IMG/VR virus record: IMGVR_UViG_3300049597_000059 | Origin: a virus | Lineage: Duplodnaviria > Heunggongvirae > Uroviricota > Caudoviricetes | DNA: 21,873 nucleotides | Reading direction: 5' to 3' (one strand) | In this document: in pieces, positions 1 through 19,524 of the stretch | Layout: each line of letters opens with the position of its first letter | How positions within the stretch are numbered: position 1 is the first letter of the stretch | Translations under genes and position numbers: made by a program | The notes under the pieces: generated by a model | What the model was told of the DNA's origin: nothing | What the model saw: the letters and a program-made list of their open reading frames with translations, nothing else | The model's database searches: none

Positions 1-3000
1 GCTAACCAGCTCAATCCTGAACTAAGTCCTATAAAGAATTTACTGTTCCAAATCATATTGATGGTGTTATCCATTGATGTATCTTCTATCTGTACACAGT
101 TGTCAAATGGGTTCTTCTCTTTAGATACATTTACTACTTTGTATCCTTGACTCACTAGATAGTTGATCACTTCCTGCCATCCCTCCTTAGTCCAAAACTT
201 ACATCCTGTTGTACTATTCGTAGCAATGGTTACGTACCTATCTTCAATTGTTGTAGGTGTAAAAGCAAACCTAGGTCTTATCTCTTTGTATTCTAGTCCA
301 AGTATATTAGTAGCTGCTTTCTGTAGAGGGATGGTGTTACATAACTCAGGCTCTTGGTCTGTGTTATATCTCCAACCTATTATGTATTCTCCATAAGCAT
401 TCACAGGTGTTCCAGGTGCAACAAACTCAAGCTCTGGATATGCTTTCTCAAACAAGAAGTTTTTGTATGTACTTACAACAACATGACAATTGTGCTTCTT
501 CTTAAACTCTAAACAGTATGGCATCCATGCAATGGTATCACCAAGACTTTCACTATCAAAGTAGATGAAGACAGTCTTGTCTGTATAGTCTAGTGTGTAG
601 TCGTGTATAAGATTACCATCTTGCCATATCTTGTTTCTCCATTTAGTGTAATAGCTTCTGTTTAGCTTTACCCACTGATTGGTTTTGATCACACTACTGT
701 AGTGACATACACCCTGCTCATCGTAGTATTCTATCTTGAAATTACTATCACTCACACCTGTTATCTCAAGAAATGGATTAACTATGTAATGCTGTGTGAT
801 GGTTACATCTTGTGGCTGTAGAGAGATAGAATCTACATGATTGTAGAAGTCTATGTTGTCTTGTCTAAATGTAATGTCTGGTATATCATAAATCACAATA
901 CCAGTACTATCAGTTTTAGCATATACATCGTCTAAGTCACTATCTATGGGTAGAAGATACTTAGTAAACATATCTTCATACTGTGGTAGGTTTCTAGCTA
1001 CAACAGGTAGTGCATAGCTGATGGCTTCTCTAAGTACAAGAGGATTGCATTCCCATGTGCTGTTGAACATGAATATGTCTGCAGCTATCAGGTAGTCTTC
1101 TACATTACTCTTCTCACCTAGAACATATACATTCTTTGGTAAGTCTTTCATCAAAGGTTCCCAGTAGTCTTTGAAGTTGCCTGCTTGATTACCTACAAAA
1201 TAGAAATCCATCCATGGATACTTCTTAGCTATCTCTATCCCCTCTGCTTGGTTCTTACCTGGAGTCCACAGTCCTACATTTACAACACTAGTCCTGAATG
1301 GAGCAAACCCCACCTTGTTCTTAGCTGCTATCTTACTTACAACACTTGGTCTTTTATCTTCTATAGGAAACTCAATCACCTTTGTATAACCTTGTAGGTT
1401 AGTAAATTTGTTGAGGTGGTAGGGTGTACAGAATGCATATGCTTCTGACTGAAACATCTTTTCTTCAGGCTTGAATGCTACATCATGGAATGTCTCTACA
1501 ATCTTGTATGATCTGTTTGTATCATACAACTTAGTAATCATCCCTCTATCATATCTTTCAGCAGGCTCATCCAGATGAATGATGTCTGGCTTCCAGCTAT
1601 CAATAATATCAAACAGTTCCATCTTGTTCTCATACAGTGTAGTGAAGTTAGATCCTACAATCTCTTTGATTGCATTACGCTGTACAACAAAGTCTAAGCT
1701 ATGGCATTGATACTCAACTACATATATCTCTACATGGTCTTTTATCTCCTGTATTCTCTTTAATAGAAACGCAGGCATACCACCTGTGGATAGATGAGGA
1801 GCTAAGAACAATATCCTTTTGTTACATTTTAATCTACTAATCATCTTGTACATTACATCTGGTCTCTTCTCTCCATGGTAGAAGAACAACTCATGCTTAC
1901 TATCAGGTAGTTTAAACCATTCCCAATGCTCTTTACCAAACTCATATTTATCTATGTTCTCTAGTACATCTAAGCTAGCATTGGTATAGATGAGTGGTAA
2001 TGACTGATCTATTTCATACTTCCAACGTACAGCATTGGCTACAGTTTCTTCATGGAAGGGTGCGTATTTCTTAAAGTCTTTTAGTATTGTAGGATGAGTA
2101 CACATGTTAGCCCACTCCTTTAAGAACGTCAGACAACTTACGCTAGCTAGGAAGTATCCTGTTTGTATATATCTGCCTCTCTGTATATCTAATAGATCAC
2201 AAATAGGTTTCTCAAGGTCTCCTTTTCCATTCAGAAACATCTGGTCATAAATGCTAGATGTAAATAGGGGATACTCAGAGACAGGATAGTTAAATACTCT
2301 GTCTACAAAAGATGTAGCAACACTATCACTGTCTACATACATCAGTGTATCAGCATACTTCAGACAGTCTATAACAATCAGTGGACGCTGTATGAGGATG
2401 TTATATACCCTATCATCTGTCCTATTGATATAAAACTGTTCTTTGGTATTGTATTCTATTGGATCTATATCACAGTTCCACCTGATAGTTGTAGCTCTAG
2501 GTACCTTCTTGTCAGAGTTGAGCATGTATACAAACACTGGATACTGACTGAATGTAGTGAGTGACTTAACACAGGCTGTCACAATATCATAATAGGCTTC
2601 TGTGGCATAGAGTACAAATGCTTTGTCTGCCACCTTCTTGCTTACATAATACCCATAGTAATCATTTGCATAGAGTAAGTCTAGTGTAGGGTAACGCTCT
2701 GCCATCACATCCTTGGTAAGATCTGCTTGCAGGTGGGTCTCATATGTATTACCATACTCCTCACCATCCTGCTCCATCATATAAGGAATAGCAACCAAAC
2801 ATTGCTTCCTAGCCATGGCAATATCACTGATAAGTTTCTGTCCTTCTTCAGCTGTTAAGTGCTCTAACACATCTCCTAGAATGATAAACTCATACTCAGA
2901 CCAATCAAACTCACGTATATCAGCAATATGTACATTACCATAATACTCCCACAGTTTATACTCACTAATGTATGGATCCCACACCTCAACAGCATCTATA

Positions 3001-3137
3001 GCATACCCAAGTTCAAACAGAAGCTTACCATATGTACCCTGTCCAGGTCCCACGTCTAACACTTTTGTGTTAGCAGGAACATTATCCCTGAACCACTCCT
3101 TCACCTCTTGCTTAAAATATGTATAACTGTTGGGCAT
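1..3137 (-). CDS. Multidomain glyco-enzyme (>=1045 aa, 3'-truncated at window edge): class I SAM methyltransferase + GT-A (DxD) + GT4-like GT-B + TibC/Aah-like heptosyltransferase
   Basis: Hand translation from ATG 3137 (MPNSYTYFKQEVKEWF...) is open to position 3. Motifs: VLDVGPGQG (aa 26-34) and LGDVLEH; YVDSDS (D269-x-D271); RILFLAPHLSTGG (about aa 441) and DIFMFNSTWECNPLVLREA (E696-x7-E704); FDSESLGDTIAWMPY (about aa 860-872) and FIGLSSGLSWLA at the window edge. Confidence 0.92.
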   Translation of the reverse strand, partial: MPNSYTYFKQEVKEWFRDNVPANTKVLDVGPGQGTYGKLLFELGYAIDAVEVWDPYISEYKLWEYYGNVHIADIREFDWSEYEFIILGDVLEHLTAEEGQKLISDIAMARKQCLVAIPYMMEQDGEEYGNTYETHLQADLTKDVMAERYPTLDLLYANDYYGYYVSKKVADKAFVLYATEAYYDIVTACVKSLTTFSQYPVFVYMLNSDKKVPRATTIRWNCDIDPIEYNTKEQFYINRTDDRVYNILIQRPLIVIDCLKYADTLMYVDSDSVATSFVDRVFNYPVSEYPLFTSSIYDQMFLNGKGDLEKPICDLLDIQRGRYIQTGYFLASVSCLTFLKEWANMCTHPTILKDFKKYAPFHEETVANAVRWKYEIDQSLPLIYTNASLDVLENIDKYEFGKEHWEWFKLPDSKHELFFYHGEKRPDVMYKMISRLKCNKRILFLAPHLSTGGMPAFLLKRIQEIKDHVEIYVVEYQCHSLDFVVQRNAIKEIVGSNFTTLYENKMELFDIIDSWKPDIIHLDEPAERYDRGMITKLYDTNRSYKIVETFHDVAFKPEEKMFQSEAYAFCTPYHLNKFTNLQGYTKVIEFPIEDKRPSVVSKIAAKNKVGFAPFRTSVVNVGLWTPGKNQAEGIEIAKKYPWMDFYFVGNQAGNFKDYWEPLMKDLPKNVYVLGEKSNVEDYLIAADIFMFNSTWECNPLVLREAISYALPVVARNLPQYEDMFTKYLLPIDSDLDDVYAKTDSTGIVIYDIPDITFRQDNIDFYNHVDSISLQPQDVTITQHYIVNPFLEITGVSDSNFKIEYYDEQGVCHYSSVIKTNQWVKLNRSYYTKWRNKIWQDGNLIHDYTLDYTDKTVFIYFDSESLGDTIAWMPYCLEFKKKHNCHVVVSTYKNFLFEKAYPELEFVAPGTPVNAYGEYIIGWRYNTDQEPELCNTIPLQKAATNILGLEYKEIRPRFAFTPTTIEDRYVTIATNSTTGCKFWTKEGWQEVINYLVSQGYKVVNVSKEKNPFDNCVQIEDTSMDNTINMIWNSKFFIGLSSGLSWL

Positions 3138-6753: not shown

Positions 6754-6861
6754 ATGGCAAATGCTAAAAAGAAACCTGTTGCTAGACGCAGCAGACGTTC
6801 TGGAATAAAGACACTAGAACAAATCAAAACCAATTTAGAAATCCTTAAAAAATACAAGTAA
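6754..6861 (+). CDS. Small basic protein (35 aa), not in track
   Basis: MANAKKKPVARRSRRSGIKTLEQIKTNLEILKKYK; TAATG-coupled to next ORF. Confidence 0.6.
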   Translation: MANAKKKPVARRSRRSGIKTLEQIKTNLEILKKYK

Positions 6862-6986
6862 TGGCAAAAGCAAAAGGTGGTGAAGTTAGAAAGATTAGCT
6901 TTGGTAAACGCAAGGGAGGCAAAGCTAAAAAGACTAGTGGACCAAAAGAAAAAGCTGTAAGCAAGTACAGAGGACAAGGTAAATAA
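6861..6986 (+). CDS. Small basic protein ending YRGQGK (41 aa), not in track
   Basis: MAKAKGGEVRKISFGKRKGGKAKKTSGPKEKAVSKYRGQGK. I recall the YRGQG(K/R) terminus from small aquatic-phage proteins. Confidence 0.7.
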   Translation: MAKAKGGEVRKISFGKRKGGKAKKTSGPKEKAVSKYRGQGK

Positions 6987-7084: not shown

Positions 7085-7114
7085 TTGGTTATAGTAAAAA
7101 ACAACATATCTTTG
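7085..7114 (+). promoter_or_regulatory. Bacteroidota-type promoter TTG-N19-TATCTTTG
   Basis: TTG 7085-7087, TATCTTTG 7107-7114, ATG 7132. Shares TTGGTTATA with the 3572 promoter. Confidence 0.75.
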
Positions 7115-7131
7115 AACATTAATTTTTAATC

Positions 7132-8286
7132 ATGCCTACATTCATAAAGCCAGGATTTTGGAGAGAACTTTGTAACCCATGTAATGGTTATGAAGGTTGG
7201 CTTAATTTAGATGATCTTATTGAAAATGTTGCTGGTACATCTGGCACAACTGGATCATCAGGCTCATCAGGAACGTCAGGTACTAGTGGTGTCTCAGGCA
7301 CATCTGGTATAAGTGGTCAATCTGGAGACAGATATCAAACCACATCTTCTACATCATTTACATTAGGGACAAGTGGAACAATCACTGTAGGTACAGGATT
7401 GGCATACACTGTTGCTCAAGATATATTGATATCTTATGATATTAATAACCATCAGGTTTCAATGGTTATATCCTACAACCCTGCTACAGGGGTTTTGGTG
7501 TTTGGTGCTCCTTCTGAAGTGGAAGGTTCAGGAACTTACACATCATGGGGTGTAAACCTTAATGGAGCTGCTGGTGGTAATGGTTCTAATGGTACATCTG
7601 GTACATCAGGACTAACTGGTTCTTCTGGTACCTCTGGCACTAGAGGGACTTCTGGAACTACAGGTACATCAGGAACAAGCGGTTCCTCAGGATTAACTGG
7701 TACTAGTGGCACTTCAGGCATAGCTGGTACATCAGGAACTAGTGGAGTTTCTCCAACACTTCCTACATCAATAAGCTATGGACTATTTGCTCAGACAGCA
7801 AACAGCACTATAATCACTAACACTACTGTAGAAACTAGTCTTATTAATGGTGGTGTAGGTACACTAACTGTACCAGCTAATGGATTCTCTGTAGGAGATA
7901 GTTTTAGAGCTGTGTTTGGTGGTGTAATTAACGCAGATAATAATCAAACTATTAGAATTAGAATGAGGACAGGATCTGTTCTTCTTTTAGATAGTGGTCT
8001 ACAGAATCTTGGCAGTGCTGTTATAAATGATGTTTGGTCTTTAAATGTTGATTTTACCATTAGACAACTAGGAACTGCTGGTGTAGCATCTATTGTAGCA
8101 CTAGGTGGTTTCCATTACACAAAAACAAACAACGCTTCTGTTCAAGGATTTGGATTTAACGTAGTGAATAGTACAACTTTTGATACAACAGTTAGTAATG
8201 TATTAGACGTTACAGCTCAATGGGGAGCTGCTTCTACAGGAAACAACATCTACAGTGACATATTTATATTGAACAAAACTTATTAA
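7132..8286 (+). CDS. Collagen-like (Gly-Thr-Ser)n fibre or decoration protein with beta-rich C-terminal domain
   Basis: Two Gly-X-Y tracts (10 and 19 triplets, mostly GTS/GSS) separated by a beta-rich domain, plus a C-terminal beta-rich domain. Confidence 0.8.
7234..7323 (+). repeat. Gly-X-Y tract 1 (10 triplets)
   Basis: [30 protein letters not shown]. Confidence 0.9.
7582..7752 (+). repeat. Gly-X-Y tract 2 (19 triplets)
   Basis: [21 protein letters not shown] ... [12 protein letters not shown]. Confidence 0.9.
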
Positions 8287-8298
8287 AATAATAATAAC

Positions 8299-8469
8299 AT
8301 GGCAATACCATCTAGACAAATAGGCTGGAGTACAACAGATAATTTACTTTGGCAAATATCCAAGCAATTGGAATATTTAACTCAAGTTACAGCTCATCCT
8401 CCTGCGTCTACAACAACAACATCTAGCAGCAGTACTACAACTACAACTACTACAACTGCTACACCGTAA
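8299..8469 (+). CDS. 56-aa protein with Thr/Ser-rich mucin-like tail, not in track
   Basis: MAIPSRQIGWSTTDNLLWQISKQLEYLTQVTAHPPASTTTTSSSSTTTTTTTATP; fills the gap between two genes with an A-rich start context. Confidence 0.8.
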   Translation: MAIPSRQIGWSTTDNLLWQISKQLEYLTQVTAHPPASTTTTSSSSTTTTTTTTATP

Positions 8470-8497
8470 ATAAAACAAAACCAACAAAACTACATAT

Positions 8498-9514
8498 ATG
8501 AAGGATCTCAGATTTATCTGTGCTCAACCAGATGATACCTATTACACATGGCAGGTACATTTATGGATAGAAAGCTTAAAGAAAATTGGACATTCAGACA
8601 AAGCAATTGTGCTTATATTCATTCCTAGTTATAGGGAAAAGAATACCAAATGGCAGCAAGTGATAGATCTCTATCCAGAAGCTGAATTTGTATTCTACAA
8701 AGATGAGCACAGCATTAGCAACATGTTAGGAGTTTATATTCCTGTGTTGCGTCCTTATTGTCTGAGAAGATATTTTGAAGAGAATCCAGGGATGAAAGAT
8801 AAAGCTGTTATGTATTGTGATTCAGACGTAGTGTTTACAGAGAATCTCAATATTGATGCTTATCTGGATGATGATATAAACTATGTATCTGATACAAACA
8901 GTTATATCAATGCTTCATATTTTGATAGTAAAGTGAAGGATGTAAAGCCTGAAAAGCTTGAGCTGTATAAAACTAGAGACATTCTAGCTGAAACAGCAGA
9001 ACTTACAGGCATAACTAGAGAGATAGCTGAGGCTAATAATCAGCATTCAGGAGGAGCACAATACCTATTAAAGAACATCGATAGTGATTTCTGGGATAAG
9101 GTGTTGCAAGACTGTTTGGTAATTAGAACACATTTACTAAACGTGAACAGAGAATTCTTTGAGAATGAAGATAAAGGCTTTCAAAGTTGGTGTGCTGATA
9201 TGTGGGCTGTTCTCTGGGCTATTTGGTATAGGAAACAAGAAGCGAAGATTATTCCTGAAATGGATTTTGCTTGGTCTTCTGATCCAATTCAAAAACTAGA
9301 GAGAATGGGACTCTTACATAACGCAGGAATTGTTGGCGATGAAGCCAATGGGTATCCTGCTTTCTATAAAGGAAAGTATCACACAGGACAAGATCCTTTA
9401 GATGATCCTCATTTACAAGAAGTTATGAATAATGAGAACAGTCAGAAGCATTGCACTCACTATTATGCATCTAAACTAATAGAATTAAAAAACAAATATA
9501 ACCTTAACTATTAA
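8498..9514 (+). CDS. GT-A glycosyltransferase resembling peptidyl-serine galactosyltransferase / hydroxyproline arabinosyltransferase (SERGT1/HPAT, GT96-like)
   Basis: N-terminal FICAQPDDTYYTWQVHLWIESL (compare C..YFDWQ..L.HS), MYCDSDVVF DxD motif, GGAQY, SWCADMWA (compare W.SEMY), LLHNAG. Confidence 0.7.
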   Translation: MKDLRFICAQPDDTYYTWQVHLWIESLKKIGHSDKAIVLIFIPSYREKNTKWQQVIDLYPEAEFVFYKDEHSISNMLGVYIPVLRPYCLRRYFEENPGMKDKAVMYCDSDVVFTENLNIDAYLDDDINYVSDTNSYINASYFDSKVKDVKPEKLELYKTRDILAETAELTGITREIAEANNQHSGGAQYLLKNIDSDFWDKVLQDCLVIRTHLLNVNREFFENEDKGFQSWCADMWAVLWAIWYRKQEAKIIPEMDFAWSSDPIQKLERMGLLHNAGIVGDEANGYPAFYKGKYHTGQDPLDDPHLQEVMNNENSQKHCTHYYASKLIELKNKYNLNY

Positions 9515-9531
9515 CCATAAAAATTTAAAAA

Positions 9532-10035
9532 ATGGGAAGTAACAATCGTGATCTTAAAGCTTATGTCCGCTATGATGGTAGTGGCAGAGTAGTTGCAGGT
9601 AGCTTAATACTGCGTAGAAACAAACCAAAGGTGGGCAACTGGCAACAAGTACAAGGGTATGAGTGCAACAGTGGCGGTACCTCTTATGAAATTATAGCAA
9701 CTGGTGAAGGTGCTGTATCAAGTGTTATCACTTACAGATCTGGTGTTGATAACAGTACACAAAGTGTAAATTTAGTTGGTGAAGATTTATTAGTAGCTAC
9801 TATATGTGCTGTAACTGGTTCTGTATCTGCAGTGGATGCAGAAGGAACTACAACAGTTATTACAGCAGGAGCTGGTTGTGAGTGTTCTGGTTTAAGTCCT
9901 GAAGTGAGTTTTAGTAATACAACTACTACCACTACATCATCTACTAGTACAACAACTACATCATCTACTAGTACAACCACTACAACTACAACTGTAGCAC
10001 CTACTACTACAACAACAACCACTACTCCTGGATAA
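9532..10035 (+). CDS. Protein with globular N-terminal domain and long Thr/Ser mucin-like tail (167 aa)
   Basis: LKAYVRYDGSGRVVAGSLILR...YECN domain; C-terminal 38 aa almost all T/S. Confidence 0.85.
   Translation: MGSNNRDLKAYVRYDGSGRVVAGSLILRRNKPKVGNWQQVQGYECNSGGTSYEIIATGEGAVSSVITYRSGVDNSTQSVNLVGEDLLVATICAVTGSVSAVDAEGTTTVITAGAGCECSGLSPEVSFSNTTTTTTSSTSTTTTSSTSTTTTTTTVAPTTTTTTTTPG
9919..10032 (+). repeat. Poly-Thr/Ser tract with 23-nt direct repeat (24-nt period)
   Basis: ACTACATCATCTACTAGTACAAC at 9931-9953 and 9955-9977. Confidence 0.9.
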
Positions 10036-10049
10036 TAAAATCAACATAA

Positions 10050-10454
10050 ATGGCAAAATCATTATTCCCTGATGAGATGATGAAATCAGGAGAACTAAAT
10101 TTAGAAATAATAGCTGGGAAGCTTACATATTTCCATGAGCAATTACATCTATTACATTGGCAAACAAAAAGTTATGCTCAACATAAAGCTCTTGGAAAAA
10201 TATATGAATATGTTCAAGATTTTAAAGATGATGTTGTTGAGAAACTTATGGGTTATACAGGTAAACGTCCTGGTGCAATTAAACTAGAACAGTTAACAGC
10301 TACAGATCCTAATGCAGTTGTCACAGCACTTATGGACTTTGCTAGTAACTTAAAAAGATATGCTGAATCAAATAGCTTCCATGACATCGCTAACCTAGCA
10401 GATGCATTATCTGGAGAAGCTGCAAAAACTAAATACTTATTAACCTTGTCTTAA
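10050..10454 (+). CDS. Ferritin/Dps-like four-helix protein (DUF5856-like)
   Basis: HLLHWQTKSYAQHKALGKIYE...KDDVVEKLMG matches the Dps-type HW...H..L...YE...D..AE pattern. Confidence 0.8.
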   Translation: MAKSLFPDEMMKSGELNLEIIAGKLTYFHEQLHLLHWQTKSYAQHKALGKIYEYVQDFKDDVVEKLMGYTGKRPGAIKLEQLTATDPNAVVTALMDFASNLKRYAESNSFHDIANLADALSGEAAKTKYLLTLS

Positions 10455-11095: not shown

Positions 11096-11245
11096 ATGGC
11101 AAAAGAAATGATTAAACGCAAGGATGGTTCTGTTTCACAACGTGGTTTGTGGGACAATATTCGTGCTGCTAAAGGCTCAGGTAAGAAACCTACATCTGCT
11201 ATGCTTAAGCAGGAAAAAAAGATCAAGGCTAAAGGTAAGAAGTAA
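11096..11245 (+). CDS. Small basic protein with GLWDNIR motif (49 aa), not in track
   Basis: MAKEMIKRKDGSVSQRGLWDNIRAAKGSGKKPTSAMLKQEKKIKAKGKK. Confidence 0.75.
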   Translation: MAKEMIKRKDGSVSQRGLWDNIRAAKGSGKKPTSAMLKQEKKIKAKGKK

Positions 11246-11330: not shown

Positions 11331-11825
11331 ATGACAAAAGTAAAAAAAGCCCAATCTGGTATTAAACTTAGAAAAGGACAATACAAAAGACTTGGCAGAA
11401 TAGCAGAAAAAAATCCTGACAGAGCTGATAAGGTGGCTGATCGCATGAAAGAAAGAGCTACACGTTTACAACGTGGTAAAAGAGTTGCTGAAAGCAGTGG
11501 CTCTAGAGCTTCAAGCATGCTACCTAAAGCTAAAGATGGTAAATCATTCCCAGACTTAAACAAGGATGGTAAGATTACTAAAGCTGACATTCTTAAAGGA
11601 CGTGGTGTTATTAAGAATGGTGGTAAGGTTAAGAAGGCTCAAGCTGGTTTAACTGCTTCTAACAAGCGTGTAGGACCTGTTGATCCTAAAGGTGCTTGGA
11701 CTAAGGTTCAAGAAATGAACTTACCTCCTCGTAATGTTAAAACTAAGGTTAGTCTTACAAGAGACAAACAGTTAGGTGCTACAAAGATGATGAAATCTGG
11801 TGGTAAAATGAAAAAGAAAAAGTAA
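11331..11825 (+). CDS. Highly basic protein with two KKAQxG motifs and an EF-hand/dockerin-like loop
   Basis: MTKVKKAQSG, GGKVKKAQAG, PDLNKDGKITKADILKGRGV. Confidence 0.85.
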   Translation: MTKVKKAQSGIKLRKGQYKRLGRIAEKNPDRADKVADRMKERATRLQRGKRVAESSGSRASSMLPKAKDGKSFPDLNKDGKITKADILKGRGVIKNGGKVKKAQAGLTASNKRVGPVDPKGAWTKVQEMNLPPRNVKTKVSLTRDKQLGATKMMKSGGKMKKKK

Positions 11826-11986
11826 TGGCTACAGATAAAAAGTGGATGCAGAAAGTAACTAAGTCTATTAAGGCTAGAGGTACAGAAGGCAAATGCACTC
11901 CTATCACAAAACCTGGTTGTACAGGTAGGGCTAAAGCTCTTGCTAAAACATTTAAGAAGATAGCTGCAAAGCGTAAAGCTAAATAA
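11825..11986 (+). CDS. Small basic protein (53 aa), not in track
   Basis: MATDKKWMQKVTKSIKARGTEGKCTPITKPGCTGRAKALAKTFKKIAAKRKAK; TAATG-coupled. Confidence 0.75.
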   Translation: MATDKKWMQKVTKSIKARGTEGKCTPITKPGCTGRAKALAKTFKKIAAKRKAK

Positions 11987-11987
11987 T

Positions 11988-12428
11988 ATGGCTAGAATTC
12001 CTAAAACAAAGGTATATAACCCACAGAAAGCAGAAGCTTATGTAGGTAAGGGAGTTCTTAGAGTTGGTGGTAAAATCACCCCTGTTCCTAATGGTCCTCT
12101 TGTTAAAAAGAAGGGAGAGTTTAAAGGCTCTACATTAAAGGACGGTGGTAAGGTTAGCCCAGCATGGCAAAGAAAAGAAGGTAAAAACCCTGAAGGTGGT
12201 TTAAATTCTAAGGGTGTAGCTTCTTATAGAAAAGCTAACCCAGGTAGTAAGCTGAAGACAGCTGTTACTACTAAACCTTCAAAACTCAAAGCTGGTTCTA
12301 AAGCAGCAAGTAGACGTAAGTCTTTCTGTTCTAGAATGTCAGGTATGAAAAAGAAACTCACGTCTGCTAAAACGGCTAATGACCCTAACAGCAGAATTAA
12401 TAAATCACTTCGTAAATGGAACTGTTAA
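11988..12428 (+). CDS. Basic protein with DUF6321-like domain
   Basis: AWQRKEGKNPEGGLNSKG...RRKSFCSRMSGM...DPNSRINKSLRKWNC pattern, recalled from aquatic phage genomes. Confidence 0.8.
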   Translation: MARIPKTKVYNPQKAEAYVGKGVLRVGGKITPVPNGPLVKKKGEFKGSTLKDGGKVSPAWQRKEGKNPEGGLNSKGVASYRKANPGSKLKTAVTTKPSKLKAGSKAASRRKSFCSRMSGMKKKLTSAKTANDPNSRINKSLRKWNC

Positions 12429-13379: not shown

Positions 13380-14015
13380 TTAGTTTATTTTATCTTTTGT
13401 ACCAAAACTTGGTACATGCATAACTCTATAAGATAAAATATTGCTTTTTGATTTTTCGCCTTTTCCTTGTTTTGACATAGCATTTATAAATTCCCAATCA
13501 TGTCCATATATTGGTAAATGTTCTGGTAATTGTTTTGCTAGCTCTGTTGTTAATATTATCTCACTATGACCTATTTCACAATTAACAAGTTTTGACACTC
13601 TAACTTTATTAATAGGATCTACAAAGGAGTCAAAGAACATGTAATCCAAATTCGTATTTTCTATTTCTAGGTAATTACTAAAATGATTACTAAGTATAAT
13701 ATCATCATTTGCATAGAATATAAAATATTTACCTGTAGCATTTTGTATTGCGTAGTTAATTAATTTATATCCACATCCCCCTCCATTTTCTTTAGCATTA
13801 AAGAAATGAATAATGTTTCCTTTTTTTTCTTGTTCCTCTTTAATAGATTGGAGATATCCACTATCAATAAGTTTTTGAAAATCTGGACAACAGTCTCCCA
13901 TTATAAAGGCTTCCCAACCATTAATATCTTGATCTAATATACATTGTATAGATCGTTTAGTTCTCTCAGGTCTACCGTAACAAGCTATACTAATTGTTAT
14001 TCTTGGCTGCGTCAT
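13380..14015 (-). CDS. GT2-family glycosyltransferase
   Basis: ITISIACYGRPE, FIMGDCCPD, NYAIQNATGKYFIFYANDD, GHDWEF. Confidence 0.85.
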   Translation of the reverse strand: MTQPRITISIACYGRPERTKRSIQCILDQDINGWEAFIMGDCCPDFQKLIDSGYLQSIKEEQEKKGNIIHFFNAKENGGGCGYKLINYAIQNATGKYFIFYANDDIILSNHFSNYLEIENTNLDYMFFDSFVDPINKVRVSKLVNCEIGHSEIILTTELAKQLPEHLPIYGHDWEFINAMSKQGKGEKSKSNILSYRVMHVPSFGTKDKIN

Positions 14016-14484
14016 TACTTCCTATATGTTTTACAGGTGATCCTGCATATTTTTGATAAGCTTCGAGTTTACTTTTTTTAATAACTACACTATTCATACC
14101 AATCATAATTCCTTCTGGTAAAGTTGTTTTTTGATGAATAGCTGCTCCCATACCAAGATTCACTTTATTTCCTACGGTACAGAATCCAGCTAATTTGGAA
14201 CCAGCACTCATGGTTACACTAGACCCAAGAATACAATCATGAGCCACATAAGCATGTTTCATAAGATAACAATTATTACCAATTACAGTTTGTCTTTCTG
14301 CTCCTGAATCAATAGTGATCATTCCAGTAAGTCTAGTACCACTTTTAATTAAAACACCTTTATCTTCATTTTCTCTTCCTTTCCATTCAGGAGGCATTCC
14401 TATAATACAATAAGGACCTATATAAACATCATCTTCTATAATAACATTTTTACCAATTATAGCTGTTTCATCTAGATGTATCAT
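13990..14484 (-). CDS. Hexapeptide-repeat (LbH) acyltransferase, LpxA-like
   Basis: I/V-G-x-N hexapeptides; LMKHAYVAHDC and AAIHQK resemble LpxA AHIAHDC and VHQ motifs. Confidence 0.8.
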   Translation of the reverse strand: MIHLDETAIIGKNVIIEDDVYIGPYCIIGMPPEWKGRENEDKGVLIKSGTRLTGMITIDSGAERQTVIGNNCYLMKHAYVAHDCILGSSVTMSAGSKLAGFCTVGNKVNLGMGAAIHQKTTLPEGIMIGMNSVVIKKSKLEAYQKYAGSPVKHIGSNDAAKNNN

Positions 14485-15223
14485 TAATATAATTTTTTAA
14501 CATTTGTGAATAATCATTTTTCCAATTGGGAACTAAATGTACATCTCCTGTAGGAATGTTTCCTATAAGTCTTTGTGATTCAATGTAAGCACTGTGTCTT
14601 TGTATAGCGTTGAGCTTTCCAGGATGGTCAGTACCCTCACCACTCATGTGATATCCTCTACCACCCCACATATAGAACCAACTTGCTTCTTCCTTAGGAG
14701 GTTTAGCAAATAGTCTTCCTCCATATGCATTGATTGCTTCAATGAATGTCATATCATATCCAGCATTTTGAAGAGGATGTCCTCCTATAGCTTTCCAAGC
14801 TGACTTTCTAAACACAATACCAGAGTTACCTATCCAACCAACTTGTTCAATACCTGTAATGTGACATAACACTCCTGTTTCCCAGTGAAGGATGTTCACA
14901 TTATCAGTCATGTATTTAGCTACATTTTGTAAGTGATTTGGTAAAGCTACATCATCATCATCCCATTGACATATAATATCTCCCTGGCATAACTCTGTAG
15001 CATAGTTCTCTTTCTCTCCTATAGTATCATATCCCTTAACTAAGTTAACTATCTTAACTTGAGGATGGTCAAATACAAGAGTTTGTAAAGGATAGTCATT
15101 GACTATTATAAGCTCACACTTATCTGCAGGGTAGTCCTGCTTGAGGAAAGATTCAATACTCTCCTCAAGCGTAGACACTCTACCATAAGTTATACATTTA
15201 CATGATATAAATGGATACTCCAT
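14468..15223 (-). CDS. GT2-family glycosyltransferase
   Basis: ISCKCITYGR, ELIIVND, IGEKEN, ICQWDDDD, AGYD. Confidence 0.88.
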   Translation of the reverse strand: MEYPFISCKCITYGRVSTLEESIESFLKQDYPADKCELIIVNDYPLQTLVFDHPQVKIVNLVKGYDTIGEKENYATELCQGDIICQWDDDDVALPNHLQNVAKYMTDNVNILHWETGVLCHITGIEQVGWIGNSGIVFRKSAWKAIGGHPLQNAGYDMTFIEAINAYGGRLFAKPPKEEASWFYMWGGRGYHMSGEGTDHPGKLNAIQRHSAYIESQRLIGNIPTGDVHLVPNWKNDYSQMLKNYINDTSR

Positions 15224-16328: not shown

Positions 16329-16774
16329 TTTGTTTGGTTTACTTGTTTATAAAATTGTTTTGTTAAATACTGTAACTGGTAGGTGTACACCTCTTCTGTT
16401 TCATCATTTAGCTCAATACCTGCCCATTTCATCATATCTATTGTTACATGGAGTAATTCATGTTGTACAATAGATGAGTCCTCAATGTCTGAGAACCATA
16501 TGATAGGAGGTTTACCATCGGCTGTACCAAATGTTACAGCTCTAGCGTCTAAATTAGGACTCTTAAGACTACTGTCAAATTTGGTAGTTATATATTTAGC
16601 AGCAAATGCTGTATCCTCTGTAACAATGATTTGTACATCCAGATCAAATGTTCCAGCAGGTATTGTATACACCTTATGATAAGGATCTGCAGGCTTTTTG
16701 TCTATTGTCCAAACAGCTGTAGCTAACATCAATCCTATAGATATACCTAGTATTATTCCCTCAGCTAATTTCAT
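16325..16774 (-). CDS. Membrane-anchored HExxH putative metallopeptidase
   Basis: N-terminal hydrophobic GIILGISIGLMLATAVW; IVQHELLHV; downstream DETEEVYTY. Confidence 0.6.
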   Translation of the reverse strand: MKLAEGIILGISIGLMLATAVWTIDKKPADPYHKVYTIPAGTFDLDVQIIVTEDTAFAAKYITTKFDSSLKSPNLDARAVTFGTADGKPPIIWFSDIEDSSIVQHELLHVTIDMMKWAGIELNDETEEVYTYQLQYLTKQFYKQVNQTK

Positions 16775-17177
16775 ACTTTTGTTTTAAATGTTCACGTCTA
16801 TTGTTTACTTCCTCAAACCTATAAATATCACTCTCTACTTGATCATGTTCATTCAAGGTCAAAAGTATGATATTTTCTTCATCTAACGCAGCTTGAGGGT
16901 ATTTTTCTTTTGGTAAAATGTGATGGAAGTATACTGAGAGGGGCTCCCCAACTAAGGGAAGCCCACTAATCTCAGATAAGTGTTGTCTTTTTTTCCAGAT
17001 TTGTAAGAAAAAGTTCTGCATGTCTACAACTTTTGCAAGCACTTCTCCAAACTTTTCTGAATTATCTTTACTAACCCAACCTTTAGTATTTTTACCTTTC
17101 AAAGGCTTTCTAGGCTTATGTTGGAAACAATACTCTCCATCACAGTTTTTACCACATGTTTTACATTGTGTTTTCAT
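16761..17177 (-). CDS. N-terminal zinc finger + HNH-like nuclease domain
   Basis: CKTCGKNCDGEYCFQH; YFHHILPKEKYP...ENIILLTLNEH. Confidence 0.7.
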   Translation of the reverse strand: MKTQCKTCGKNCDGEYCFQHKPRKPLKGKNTKGWVSKDNSEKFGEVLAKVVDMQNFFLQIWKKRQHLSEISGLPLVGEPLSVYFHHILPKEKYPQAALDEENIILLTLNEHDQVESDIYRFEEVNNRREHLKQKYEIS

Positions 17178-19070: not shown

Positions 19071-19095
19071 AAATAGCCCCAGATAGGAGCTATTT
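19071..19095 (-). terminator. Intrinsic terminator after the HNH gene
   Basis: Minus strand AAATAGCTCC-TATCT-GGGGCTATTT followed by TTTTATTTTT. Confidence 0.8.
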
Positions 19096-19524
19096 ACAGT
19101 TATTGATAAGTTCTTGAAGAAACTCATCTTTAGTAAGATGACTGTTCTGACTATATATATTAAGAATTTTTTGTCTAGATATTACTGCACCATTTTTTGA
19201 TATGTTTTTAGAGTGGTATAAGTTTTCTTTTTGATTACACCATTCTAAGTTATTGATGTTATAATTTTCTGAATTACCATCAATGTGATTAACAACAGGA
19301 TAATTGTTTGGATTGTCTATAAATGCTTTAGCTACAAGTCTATGTAATAAATGATTACTTTTTCTTCCTATAGATAGATCTTGTTTTTGTAGAGTTACAG
19401 TAGGATAACCATTAGAAAGAAAATATTTTCTTGGCTTTTTGGTTTTTGCATTTCTTACATTACCAAAACTACTTATCTCGTACTTAGGAGCATCATTAAC
19501 AACTTTCCAAATTTCAATACTCAT
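19090..19524 (-). CDS. NUMOD4-HNH homing endonuclease
   Basis: EIWK...YEISSFGNVR (NUMOD4); LHRLVAKAFIDNPNNYPVVNHIDGN..NY...NLEW (HNH). Confidence 0.92.
   Translation of the reverse strand: MSIEIWKVVNDAPKYEISSFGNVRNAKTKKPRKYFLSNGYPTVTLQKQDLSIGRKSNHLLHRLVAKAFIDNPNNYPVVNHIDGNSENYNINNLEWCNQKENLYHSKNISKNGAVISRQKILNIYSQNSHLTKDEFLQELINNCK

Follow-up and report, generated by a model that had tools for sequence, protein, structure and literature searches.

Why does a tailed phage carry a glycosyltransferase gene directly between two genes whose products end in almost nothing but threonine and serine? This arrangement occupies positions 7132-10035 of a 21,873-nucleotide stretch of DNA from a large, uncultured member of the Caudoviricetes (referred to here as the window), and an earlier note on this DNA had read it as a protein O-glycosylation module in which the enzyme is encoded together with its acceptors. 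The cassette consists of four tightly spaced ORFs, separated by gaps of 12, 28 and 17 nt; all four of the genes described in that note are present on the + strand. The features of the cassette and of the region immediately preceding it are as follows.

7107..7114, + strand: Bacteroidota-type -7 promoter element (TAnnTTTG) within the 124 nt that precede the cassette; a weak promoter candidate.
7132..8286, + strand: collagen-like fibre protein of 384 aa, the first cassette gene, with a globular C-terminal part.
8299..8469, + strand: mini-protein of 56 aa, proposed as an acceptor: module A (about residues 1-32, nt 8299-8394), followed by a tail of Thr/Ser (residues 37-56, nt 8407-8466).
8498..9514, + strand: soluble GT-A glycosyltransferase of 338 aa with a DxD motif (D108/D110), matching phrog_4417; proposed Thr/Ser O-glycosyltransferase.
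9532..10035, + strand: protein of 167 aa, proposed as an acceptor: module B at the N-terminus (residues 1-47, nt 9532-9672), then a middle part that varies, then a Thr/Ser tail of 38 residues (nt 9919-10032).

The promoter previously placed at 7085 was not recovered, as a sigma-70 scan gave no + strand site at that position. The TAnnTTTG motif at 7107-7114 is the sole + strand copy between 6903 and 10738, in a window where this motif barely exceeds chance (38 matches, against 28 +/- 5 expected).

When all ORFs of at least 40 aa with an ATG start were scanned across the whole 21.9-kb window, only two reached a density of at least 11 Thr/Ser per 15 residues, and both directly flank the enzyme gene. 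The smaller of these, the 56-aa ORF, is a real gene: module A, of about 32 residues, is kept in 46 of the 61 distinct ORFs found upstream of the enzyme in related contigs, and 39 of these 46 end in a run of at least six Thr. Its product is a 36-residue head followed by a tail, with little else, and 18 of the final 20 residues are Thr or Ser; the Thr-rich end had been correctly described, but eight consecutive Thr precede the closing ATP, and not seven. The tail of the 167-aa protein holds 33 Thr/Ser (27 Thr and six Ser), and its module B is conserved across 28 aligned homologues, the remainder of the protein being variable. A DNA-microsatellite origin of the Thr runs was considered and discarded, since the Thr codons in the tails (ACA, ACT and ACC) are mixed, with the same usage as in the adjoining genes. 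Furthermore, run length is sharply constrained to seven in this lineage, which suggests that selection acts on the tract itself. A close relative stands in for the genome from which the window derives; its enzyme is 95% identical, and its 114.6-kb genome encodes, away from the cassette, at least five other proteins with Thr7 linkers.

Neither the 56-aa nor the 167-aa protein has a match in Pfam. The AF2 model of the latter is poor overall (pLDDT 44), with values of 73-79 for module B and of 28-35 for the tail, and an ESM-Atlas look-up with this protein gave a best match of only 0.76. In relatives, module A is found at the head of collagen-like tail fibres and of a phrog_1645 virion structural protein (E 2e-137), and module B at the head of proteins ending in LRR_5 (BspA-type LRR) or Peptidase_S74 domains. 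Since these N-terminal modules are common to tail fibres and a virion structural protein, the sequences of both tailed proteins look like those of minimal fibre-type proteins, with the N-terminal module as a predicted anchor. The 384-aa protein encoded by the first gene matches Pfam Collagen (PF01391; E 8.9e-13, 48.2 bits against a cut-off of 27.2) as well as PHROG tail fibre families (for example phrog_5073, E 4.5e-10). It contains two Thr/Ser-rich stretches of Gly-X-Y repeats, of 11 triplets (residues 35-67) and 21 triplets (residues 145-207), in which the triple-helix runs are proline-poor and of the Gly-Thr/Ser-Ser/Thr type; the collagen fibre of a relative that looks orthologous (L005:4462-5553) has module A at its N-terminus instead. 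The 384-aa protein is no more than a possible further acceptor.

The 338-aa enzyme itself has no match in Pfam and aligns over residues 5-325 with positions 2-286 of the 293 in phrog_4417, a family of unknown function (E 9.3e-55). Its own family comprises 769 clusters at 50% identity (E up to 1e-3), annotated as hypothetical or of unknown function; a search started from the representative P0173 found no relatives. The DxD motif previously reported as CDSD is present (C107-D108-S109-D110), both aspartates being among the nine residues that are invariant across 61 diverse homologues (Y80, D108, D110, Y136, Q229, F257, H274, F289 and K291). The AF2 model (pLDDT 97) matches 93 solved chains at a Z-score of at least 8, with GT-A glycosyltransferases at the top, which, together with the invariant DxD, identifies a GT-A fold. 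The solved-structure neighbours are retaining GT8-type enzymes, pointing to a presumably retaining chemistry. Several act on protein-linked acceptors, namely glycogenin (Z 14.4), Skp1 AgtA (13.9), UGGT (13.4), the serine-rich-repeat enzyme GlyE (12.9) and A64R, which glycosylates the capsid of PBCV-1 (11.2), and others, among them LgtC (14.0) and WbbM (13.4), act on sugars.

A closer likeness emerged from the AlphaFold DB, in a comparison with predicted structures on both sides. The best named match is Arabidopsis SERGT1 (E 8e-12, TM 0.60), in the company of HPAT1-3, PLENTY, RDN1 and RDN2 (TM 0.56-0.61), with galactinol synthases, glycogenins and GAUTs lower (TM 0.39-0.48). Fold clusters rank alike (TM 0.54-0.64 for HPAT-like domain proteins, against 0.49-0.53 for GT8), and the closest named ESM-Atlas clusters carry HPAT. 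The fold search called for in the earlier note therefore bears out the SERGT1/HPAT-like fold proposed there, as SERGT1 and the HPATs outrank GT8 enzymes in both the AlphaFold DB (GT8 at TM 0.44-0.48) and the fold clusters. Its label for the enzyme, SERGT1/HPAT (GT96)-like, holds only in part: the likeness of fold stands, but membership of GT95 or GT96 does not follow from it, the enzyme going undetected by Pfam HPAT, a family that belongs to CAZy GT95 rather than GT96. Indeed, the HPAT profile (PF23452) gives no match to the window enzyme at E values up to 1; it weakly matches four of the 61 homologues (best E 1.3e-4) and is still the most-matched family in the alignment. Searches of five enzyme-bearing genomes with this profile were negative and, control genomes being equally silent, uninformative, and Glyco_transf_8 (PF01501), which detects six of 14 control genomes, had no match in five enzyme-bearing genomes. 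The enzyme sequence and its 61-member profile yielded only chance-level matches to solved structures. Since the Pfam HPAT and GT8 models miss the enzyme and its phage homologues, the class of acceptor has been deduced from structural neighbours of only 11-14% identity. The type II membrane anchor of HPAT and SERGT1 is lacking, the first β-strand starting at residue 4 and the longest hydrophobic stretch measuring nine residues. Some homologues are fused to GT2, methyltransferase or Gly_transf_sug domains, which fits a role in glycan building, and, as a lead only, PqqD, which binds peptide leaders, occurs together with HPAT-like domains in one ESM-Atlas cluster (score 0.87).

The association between the enzyme and Thr tracts was evaluated within the lineage of the window and beyond it. 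Across 80 lineage loci with enzymes 66-96% identical, a Thr/Ser-dense ORF begins directly after the enzyme gene in 59-61 and ends directly before it in 28; under a relaxed criterion, a Thr run is found nearby on the same strand in 78 of the 80 and on the opposite strand in none. Around 31 enzyme clusters from other phages, clustered at 60% identity, tract density amounts to 0.77-0.97 per kb within 1 kb upstream, compared with 0-0.065 at distances of 3 kb or more, and all 59 tracts lie on the enzyme strand. A Thr run occurs between -2.5 and +1.5 kb of the enzyme in 24 of these 31 clusters and is lacking in seven, and in one distant set only 37 of 80 loci have a run within the same limits; the association is thus not universal. 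The gene-order comparison that the earlier note had proposed nevertheless agrees with its reading, as the Thr-rich neighbours on whose absence a refutation was to rest accompany the enzyme in nearly all lineage loci and most of the other clusters, and recur in unrelated phages.

In three Firmicutes siphophages the enzyme gene lies inside the head-tail morphogenesis operon. In Enterococcus phiFL1A and Lactococcus 1706 it directly follows the gene for a major tail protein ending in poly-Thr, and in Lactobacillus PLE3 it follows that of a 126-aa protein, half of it poly-Thr and annotated 'major tail protein'; the gene immediately before that one encodes a major head protein with Thr7 at its end. 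In these phages it is tail-tube and capsid proteins lacking a module leader that carry the poly-Thr ends, and the Thr association is present at loci with no collagen-like gene near the enzyme. In Chryseobacterium phage MA9V-3 the gene before the homologue encodes a 428-aa protein that contains a Thr/Ser tract of 21 residues; two genes further upstream lies that of a 245-aa protein containing two such tracts, 41 and 18 residues long. The fused GT2-methyltransferase form likewise comes after a large protein, whose Thr/Ser tracts measure 21 and 33 residues.

On the scale of whole genomes, seven enzyme-bearing genomes of about 100 kb have 4-23 Thr-run matches each. Five complete relatives have 4-23 Thr7-coding matches, on one strand only, against 0-4 on that strand for a reversed control pattern, and MA9V-3 has 15 Thr6-coding matches. 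Neither the enzyme nor any Thr6 tract was detected in the Crassvirales Cellulophaga phi14:2, crAss001, DAC15 and crAss002, a contrast that amounts to few independent events, since the five positives form one lineage and the kinship of the negatives is unconfirmed, the RecA-like protein of the window having no match in these four genomes.

With both the fold and the gene-order checks positive, the glycosylation-module reading is supported overall. We estimate a probability of about 0.7 that the enzyme O-glycosylates poly-Thr tracts of phage proteins, giving mucin-like stalks or brushes on virion appendages, as judged from fold similarity and gene association. The soluble, DxD metal-dependent GT-A enzyme would act in the cytoplasm of the infected cell, moving a sugar from a nucleotide-sugar donor to the hydroxyl groups of Thr (and Ser) in the poly-Thr tracts of phage-encoded proteins. 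The nearest acceptors would be the two flanking proteins, in each of which a Thr/Ser tail is joined to a conserved N-terminal module, the presumed anchor, and the Thr7 linkers in the five or more other proteins of the close relative could serve as further acceptors. Once glycosylated, the tracts may become extended, stiff, hydrophilic and protease-resistant. The acceptor-tail coat put forward in the earlier note is accordingly narrowed: the tailed neighbours remain the likely acceptors, but small fibre-type proteins and Thr7 linkers take the place of a capsid-wide coat. The first sugar may then be extended or decorated by the products of further glyco-genes in the window.

3..3137, - strand: multi-domain glycosyltransferase of more than 1045 aa, running off the window (Pfam Glycos_transf_1, E 8e-9, Glyco_trans_1_4 and weak Glyco_transf_9; PHROG glycosyltransferase); possibly a glycan-extending enzyme.
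13380-14015, - strand: GT2 (Pfam Glycos_transf_2, E 3e-6).
13990-14484, - strand: hexapeptide acyltransferase (Pfam Hexapep, E 6e-17).
14468-15223, - strand: GT2 (Pfam Glycos_transf_2, E 2e-11).

The last three form a gene trio (13380..15223, -) of possible glycan-extending or glycan-modifying enzymes.

The glycosyltransferases among these genes could instead belong to a polysaccharide pathway, in which case the enzyme might glycosylate a non-protein acceptor such as a host surface polysaccharide, LPS, teichoic acid or phage DNA, and the Thr-rich genes would adjoin it merely through shared fast-evolving fibre and accessory regions. The sugar-acting LgtC and WbbM among the solved-structure neighbours are compatible with such a role, as is the distant set in which about half of the loci have no nearby Thr run, and some of the co-location could indeed reflect shared variable regions, since poly-Thr tracts sit at the junctions of swappable fibre cassettes. 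This explanation is nonetheless unlikely, given that the three Firmicutes siphophages place the gene in the head-tail operon, directly after proteins ending in poly-Thr, that tracts are densest within 1 kb of the gene and always on its strand, that enzyme-bearing genomes have Thr tracts and the four enzyme-less ones have none, and that peptide O-glycosyltransferases rank first among the named fold neighbours. The poly-Thr tracts could also be unmodified flexible spacers or recombination joints for fibre-domain swaps, the enzyme targeting a different place, for instance a folded domain or the Gly-Thr-Ser repeats of the collagen-like kind. C-terminal domains do differ between relatives at the tract junctions, and the collagen-like Gly-X-Thr repeats of the Bacillus exosporium protein BclA are glycosylated. 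A spacer function would, however, leave little reason for the many tracts that are terminal tails with nothing beyond, as in most module A proteins, for an association that persists where the enzyme has no collagen-like gene nearby, or for a run length held tightly at seven, and we regard it as highly improbable.

A different possibility is that the tails are glycosylated and the two small proteins are intracellular or released glycopeptides that serve, for example, as decoys, help assembly or modulate the host, and whose N-terminal modules act as leaders recognised by the enzyme. The 56-aa protein, hardly more than a head and a tail, would suit such a role; the ESM-Atlas cluster joining HPAT-like and PqqD leader-binding domains hints at leader recognition, and the particle location is deduced from shared modules, with a poor AF2 model for the 167-aa protein. 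Module A is, however, common to collagen-like tail fibres and the phrog_1645 virion structural protein, and module B to tail-fibre chaperone (Peptidase_S74) and adhesin-type LRR proteins. Moreover, since the putative tail-tube and capsid acceptors of the Firmicutes phages carry no such leader, the enzyme does not appear to need the modules, and a non-virion role for the small proteins is quite unlikely.

The preferred reading, glycosylation of poly-Thr tracts on virion proteins, may extend well beyond the window. With somewhat better than even odds, this is a widespread, so far undescribed system of phages: a single cytoplasmic GT-A enzyme of the HPAT/SERGT-like type would read encoded poly-Thr tags, as Thr7-x-x-Pro units in this lineage, and build mucin-like virion brushes, both in large Bacteroidota phages (plug-in mini-fibres and fibre linkers) and in many phages of Gram-positive hosts (capsid and tail tube). 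The recurrence of the same pairing across unrelated phages makes it probable that these viruses sugar-coat parts of their own particles. To our knowledge, sugar-coating of phage virions has been demonstrated experimentally only in mycobacteriophages, whose virion O-glycosylation was reportedly described by Freeman et al. in 2023 (Cell Host Microbe 31:1216). According to papers that cite this work, the glycosyltransferases of mycobacteriophages Che8, Corndog and Myrna modify the phages' own structural proteins at C-terminal extensions, and the glycans lie on exposed parts of the particle (PMC12619734, PMC12691614). The combination of a phage glycosyltransferase with C-terminal extensions on structural proteins, here poly-Thr and putative acceptors, also occurs in the Firmicutes phages that bear a homologue. 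In contrast, none of the 77 phage records with an enzyme homologue is a Mycobacterium phage, the enzyme family is different, the tag is a near-pure poly-Thr tract and the modification is a prediction, in a presumably Bacteroidota host. Furthermore, the acceptors are capsid and tail-tube proteins in mycobacteriophages; in the window phage they would be linkers and small fibre-type proteins, whose shared N-terminal modules suggest a place on the virion.

Other known systems share single elements with the one proposed. SERGT1 (GT96) and HPAT1-3, RDN and PLENTY (GT95), the best named fold neighbours, are GT-A enzymes with a DxD motif from plants and algae that attach the first sugar to the hydroxyls of extended peptides of low complexity, as is proposed for the phage enzyme. 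The plant enzymes have a type II membrane anchor and a secretory-pathway location, with Ser-Hyp4 as the plant acceptor motif, whereas the phage enzyme, only 11-14% identical, has neither an anchor nor a secretory context, and its presumed acceptor is Thr in poly-Thr rather than Ser or Hyp. The serine-rich-repeat adhesin systems of streptococci and staphylococci (GtfA/GtfB with GT8-type extenders such as GlyE) likewise rely on co-encoded, dedicated cytoplasmic O-glycosylation of Ser/Thr-rich low-complexity fibre tracts. These adhesins are bacterial and exported after modification, and their initiating enzyme is GT-B, in contrast to the phage context, where one enzyme alone, a GT-A, is conserved together with the tracts. 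In chlorovirus PBCV-1, a virus-encoded cytoplasmic GT-A enzyme, A64R, glycosylates a structural protein of the virus itself, for which a phage counterpart is predicted here; PBCV-1 is a eukaryotic giant virus with atypical N-linked glycans on a folded capsid protein and, unlike these phages, has no poly-Thr tags. The literature that was searched contained no description of the pairing of this enzyme with poly-Thr tails, which is not proof of absence.

If the proposed mechanism is correct, virion glycosylation would be common rather than a mycobacteriophage peculiarity: O-glycan-decorated particles would be widespread in nature beyond the actinobacteriophages, including the abundant aquatic phages of about 100 kb, and poly-Thr would be a portable glycosylation handle. 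The prediction can be put to a direct test, since carriers are in culture: Chryseobacterium phage MA9V-3, Enterococcus phiFL1A, Lactococcus 1706 and Lactobacillus PLE3. A small single enzyme acting on a poly-Thr tag would also be a practical tool for the cytoplasmic glycosylation of recombinant proteins. For the phages themselves, such brushes, whether on fibres, capsids or tail tubes, would influence how virions adsorb to glycan-binding host surfaces and stick to mucus and organic particles, how well they withstand proteases, and how antibodies recognise them in phage therapy.

The window is phage DNA and encodes a GH19 endolysin, a UvsX/RecA-like recombinase, a dUTPase, a ribonucleotide reductase and HNH endonucleases; glyco-genes are unusually abundant in it. 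Four close-set genes on the + strand, separated by intergenic gaps of 12, 28 and 17 nt, make up a cassette (7132-10035) that includes a GT-A glycosyltransferase, hereafter the enzyme:

7132-8286, + strand: gene 1, collagen-like fibre, 384 aa (Pfam Collagen, E = 9e-13; PHROG tail-fibre families)
8299-8469, + strand: gene 2, 56-aa protein with a terminal 20-residue tail, 18 of them Thr/Ser
8498-9514, + strand: gene 3, the enzyme, 338 aa, with C107-D108-S109-D110
9532-10035, + strand: gene 4, 167-aa protein with a terminal 38-residue tail, 33 of them Thr/Ser

Two stretches of the fibre consist of Gly-X-Y triplets, 11 in one and 21 in the other, mostly Gly-Thr-Ser. In a survey of ORFs of at least 40 aa with an ATG start, genes 2 and 4 were the only ones in the 21.9-kb window to contain stretches with at least 11 Thr/Ser per 15 residues, which upholds the earlier note's description of Thr/Ser-tailed proteins flanking the enzyme.

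The enzyme has no match in Pfam but strongly matches phrog_4417 (E = 9e-55), a family of unknown function. The family comprises 2922 proteins at E <= 1e-3 in a 90%-clustered collection and 769 cluster representatives at 50% identity, and longer homologues carry additional GT2, methyltransferase or Gly_transf_sug domains. Across 61 aligned, diverse members of the family, residues Y80, D108, D110, Y136, Q229, F257, H274, F289 and K291 are invariant. The AF2 model of the enzyme (pLDDT 97, pTM 0.94) has retaining GT8-type GT-A enzymes as its neighbours among solved structures, including glycogenin (Z = 14.4), LgtC (14.0), the Skp1 galactosyltransferase (13.9), UGGT (13.4), the serine-rich-repeat enzyme GlyE (12.9) and the PBCV-1 capsid enzyme A64R (11.2). 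Among predicted structures of reviewed proteins, the best matches are SERGT1 (E = 8e-12, TM 0.60) and the hydroxyproline O-arabinosyltransferases (TM 0.56-0.61), with galactinol synthases, glycogenins and GAUTs ranking lower (TM 0.39-0.48); in the AlphaFold fold clusters, three proteins from the family of the enzyme itself, all unnamed, come first (TM 0.76-0.82), followed by the same order. The likeness to SERGT1/HPAT enzymes that the earlier note had read from the sequence therefore holds at the level of the fold. At the sequence level the link to HPAT is thin but points in the same direction: Pfam HPAT is the family matched by most alignment members (four of 61, best E = 1.3e-4), and the nearest named clusters in the ESM-Atlas carry HPAT. 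Since this link is thin and direct searches with the Pfam HPAT and GT8 profiles left the phage enzyme genes undetected, the enzyme is best regarded as belonging to a distinct family that resembles GT95/GT96, and not as a member of either. No hydrophobic anchor was found in its sequence or AF2 model, and it should therefore act in the cytoplasm. The ESM-Atlas look-up also returned a bacterial cluster (score 0.87) in which 95% of the members carry PqqD and 55% an HPAT-like domain. PqqD binds peptide leaders in RiPP pathways, and this cluster is a lead towards relatives of the enzyme fold that glycosylate peptides in bacteria.

The surroundings of the enzyme were compared across 80 loci on viral contigs of the same lineage (enzyme 66-96% identical, many contigs of 100-119 kb). 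Immediately downstream of the enzyme, 59-61 of the 80 loci have the start of a Thr/Ser-dense ORF; in 28, such an ORF ends immediately upstream. Under a relaxed criterion (a run of at least six Thr or at least nine Thr/Ser, from -2.5 to +1.5 kb of the enzyme), a run lies nearby on the same strand in 78 of the 80 loci and on the opposite strand in none. Some 32 N-terminal residues (module A) are common to 46 of the 61 distinct versions of the small upstream ORF, and 39 of the 46 end in a Thr run; on this conservation, the 56-aa ORF proposed in the earlier note is to be taken as a genuine gene. The downstream genes begin with a different 47-residue module (module B), after which come variable domains and Thr tracts. 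The length of the Thr runs in this lineage is strikingly quantised: among 302 distinct runs of at least four Thr in the enzyme flanks of loci L005-L084, 156 have exactly seven residues, 40 have eight and none has ten or more, and most runs in the lineage are followed by x-x-Pro (AAP, VAP, ATP). Run lengths in other enzyme-bearing lineages are broad, up to 26. At five of the related loci (L011:5917-7017, L065, L074, L076 and L078), HNH/NUMOD-type endonuclease-like genes of 194-202 aa stand immediately before or after the enzyme; as they replace the small Thr-tailed gene there, mobile-element insertion into the cassette is suggested in several relatives.

The association extends to unrelated phages. 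A homologue (gp51) directly follows a major tail protein with a long terminal poly-Thr/Ser tail in Enterococcus phage phiFL1A, and in Lactococcus phage 1706 one comes after a major tail protein whose last ten residues are Thr. In Lactobacillus phage PLE3 the homologue comes after a 126-aa protein that is about half poly-Thr (annotated 'major tail protein'), itself preceded by a major head protein with seven terminal Thr. Just upstream of the enzyme, Chryseobacterium phage MA9V-3 encodes a 428-aa protein whose Thr/Ser tract spans 21 residues and, two genes further upstream, a 245-aa protein with two tracts, one of 41 and one of 18 residues; among cultured phages, MA9V-3 is the nearest relative by both enzyme (31%) and RecA-like gene (44%). 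Two scans with distant representatives added 160 loci, and all enzymes were grouped into 31 clusters at 60% identity. In these clusters the density of strict tracts is 0.77-0.97 per kb within 1 kb upstream of the enzyme, compared with 0-0.065 per kb at distances of at least 3 kb, and all 59 strict tracts lie on the strand of the enzyme; by the relaxed criterion, 24 of the 31 clusters have a nearby run, against one of 31 on the opposite strand. Conservation of the gene order of enzyme and Thr-rich ORFs, which the earlier note had proposed as a check, is thus borne out within the lineage and beyond it. The link has exceptions: in one distant set, just 37 of 80 loci have runs near the enzyme. Two fused forms of the enzyme were examined, and one of them lies downstream of a large protein containing 21- and 33-residue Thr/Ser tracts.

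That the tailed proteins are not parts of the virion is less well supported than a structural role. Module A is also found at the N-terminus of other proteins in related contigs: collagen-like tail fibres, among them one that looks like a counterpart of gene 1 with a different N-terminus, as well as a phrog_1645 virion structural protein (E = 2e-137) and a Fib_succ_major-domain protein. Module B begins proteins whose C-terminal part is a Peptidase_S74 tail-fibre chaperone or BspA-type leucine-rich repeats. Because the modules are shared with fibre and virion proteins, genes 2 and 4 appear to encode minimal representatives of two plug-in fibre families, each product consisting of an anchor with a Thr tail. 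For the 167-aa protein, AF2 gives a confident model of module B only (pLDDT 73-79), and the low values for the tail (28-35) would fit a disordered segment.

Two further readings, that the Thr tracts are unmodified spacers or that the acceptor of the enzyme is not a protein, are likewise less well supported. At the level of whole genomes, five complete relatives contain 4-23 Thr7-coding matches each, all on one strand, compared with 0-4 on that strand for a reversed control pattern. In the closest relative (114.6 kb, with terminal repeats), runs occur in both enzyme-flanking genes and also, at three places elsewhere, in at least five other proteins; two of the latter adjoin a Peptidase_S74-chaperone tail fibre, a sulfotransferase and an APS-kinase-like gene. 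In MA9V-3 the enzyme is accompanied by 15 Thr6-coding matches, while Cellulophaga phage phi14:2, crAss001, DAC15 and crAss002, which are without the enzyme, have no Thr6 tract on either strand. This contrast is clean, yet it represents few independent events, and the kinship of the negative genomes to the window phage is unconfirmed.

Glycosylation of the tracts is accordingly proposed only as a model. A cytoplasmic, metal-dependent GT-A enzyme would add a sugar to the hydroxyls of Thr (and Ser) in poly-Thr tracts of phage proteins before or during assembly, giving extended, stiff, protease-resistant mucin-like stalks or brushes on the virion appendages. GT8, GT95 and GT96 are retaining enzymes and, by analogy, a first guess would be an α-linked first sugar from a UDP-sugar donor. 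Other glycosyltransferases, the acyltransferase and a relative's sulfotransferase could extend or decorate the glycan, their link to the cassette being conjecture. They are found at the following places:

3-3137, - strand: multi-domain glycosyltransferase of more than 1045 aa, its open frame exiting the window; it includes a GT-B domain (Glycos_transf_1), and its C-terminal region is weakly GT9-like
13380-15223, - strand: GT2, hexapeptide-repeat acyltransferase and GT2 whose stops and starts overlap, forming a second block of glyco-genes, on the strand opposite to the cassette
L247:35-4892 (relative G002), about 5-10 kb past the left end of the window by collinearity: two small proteins with Thr8/Thr9 runs, between a Peptidase_S74 tail fibre and three genes

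These three genes encode a sulfotransferase (E = 3e-20), an APS-kinase-like protein (E = 1e-8) and a 291-aa product without assignment, which hints at sulfated glycans.

The promoter that had been placed at 7085 was not recovered in a sigma-70 scan. A Bacteroidota-type TAnnTTTG at 7107-7114 is the sole + strand copy before 10738, where the next one lies beyond the gene that follows the DUF5856 gene. Transcription of the cassette as a single unit is plausible, and no firmer than that because TAnnTTTG occurs in the window at about chance frequency. The DUF5856 protein (10050-10454, directly after the cassette) bears the PHROG name starvation-inducible regulator. Small, basic, very lysine-rich proteins are clustered at 6861-6986, 11096-11245, 11331-11825, 11825-11986 and 11988-12428, and are possibly packaged DNA-binding or internal proteins; one has a C-terminal DUF6321 domain, which PHROGs places at the end of much longer phage proteins. 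The HNH endonuclease genes at 16761-17177 and 19090-19524 (- strand), adjoining the dUTPase, RecA-like and ribonucleotide reductase genes, are probably homing endonucleases.

O-glycosylation of mycobacteriophage virions takes place on C-terminal extensions of capsid and tail-tube proteins (Freeman et al., 2023, as cited in PMC12619734 and PMC12691614). The enzyme family here is different, as none of 77 homologue-bearing phage records is a Mycobacterium phage; moreover, the proposed tag is poly-Thr and the hosts differ. No description of the enzyme-tail pairing was found in the literature searched. While self-glycosylation by phages is already known, the enzyme family and the type of tag described here appear to be new.
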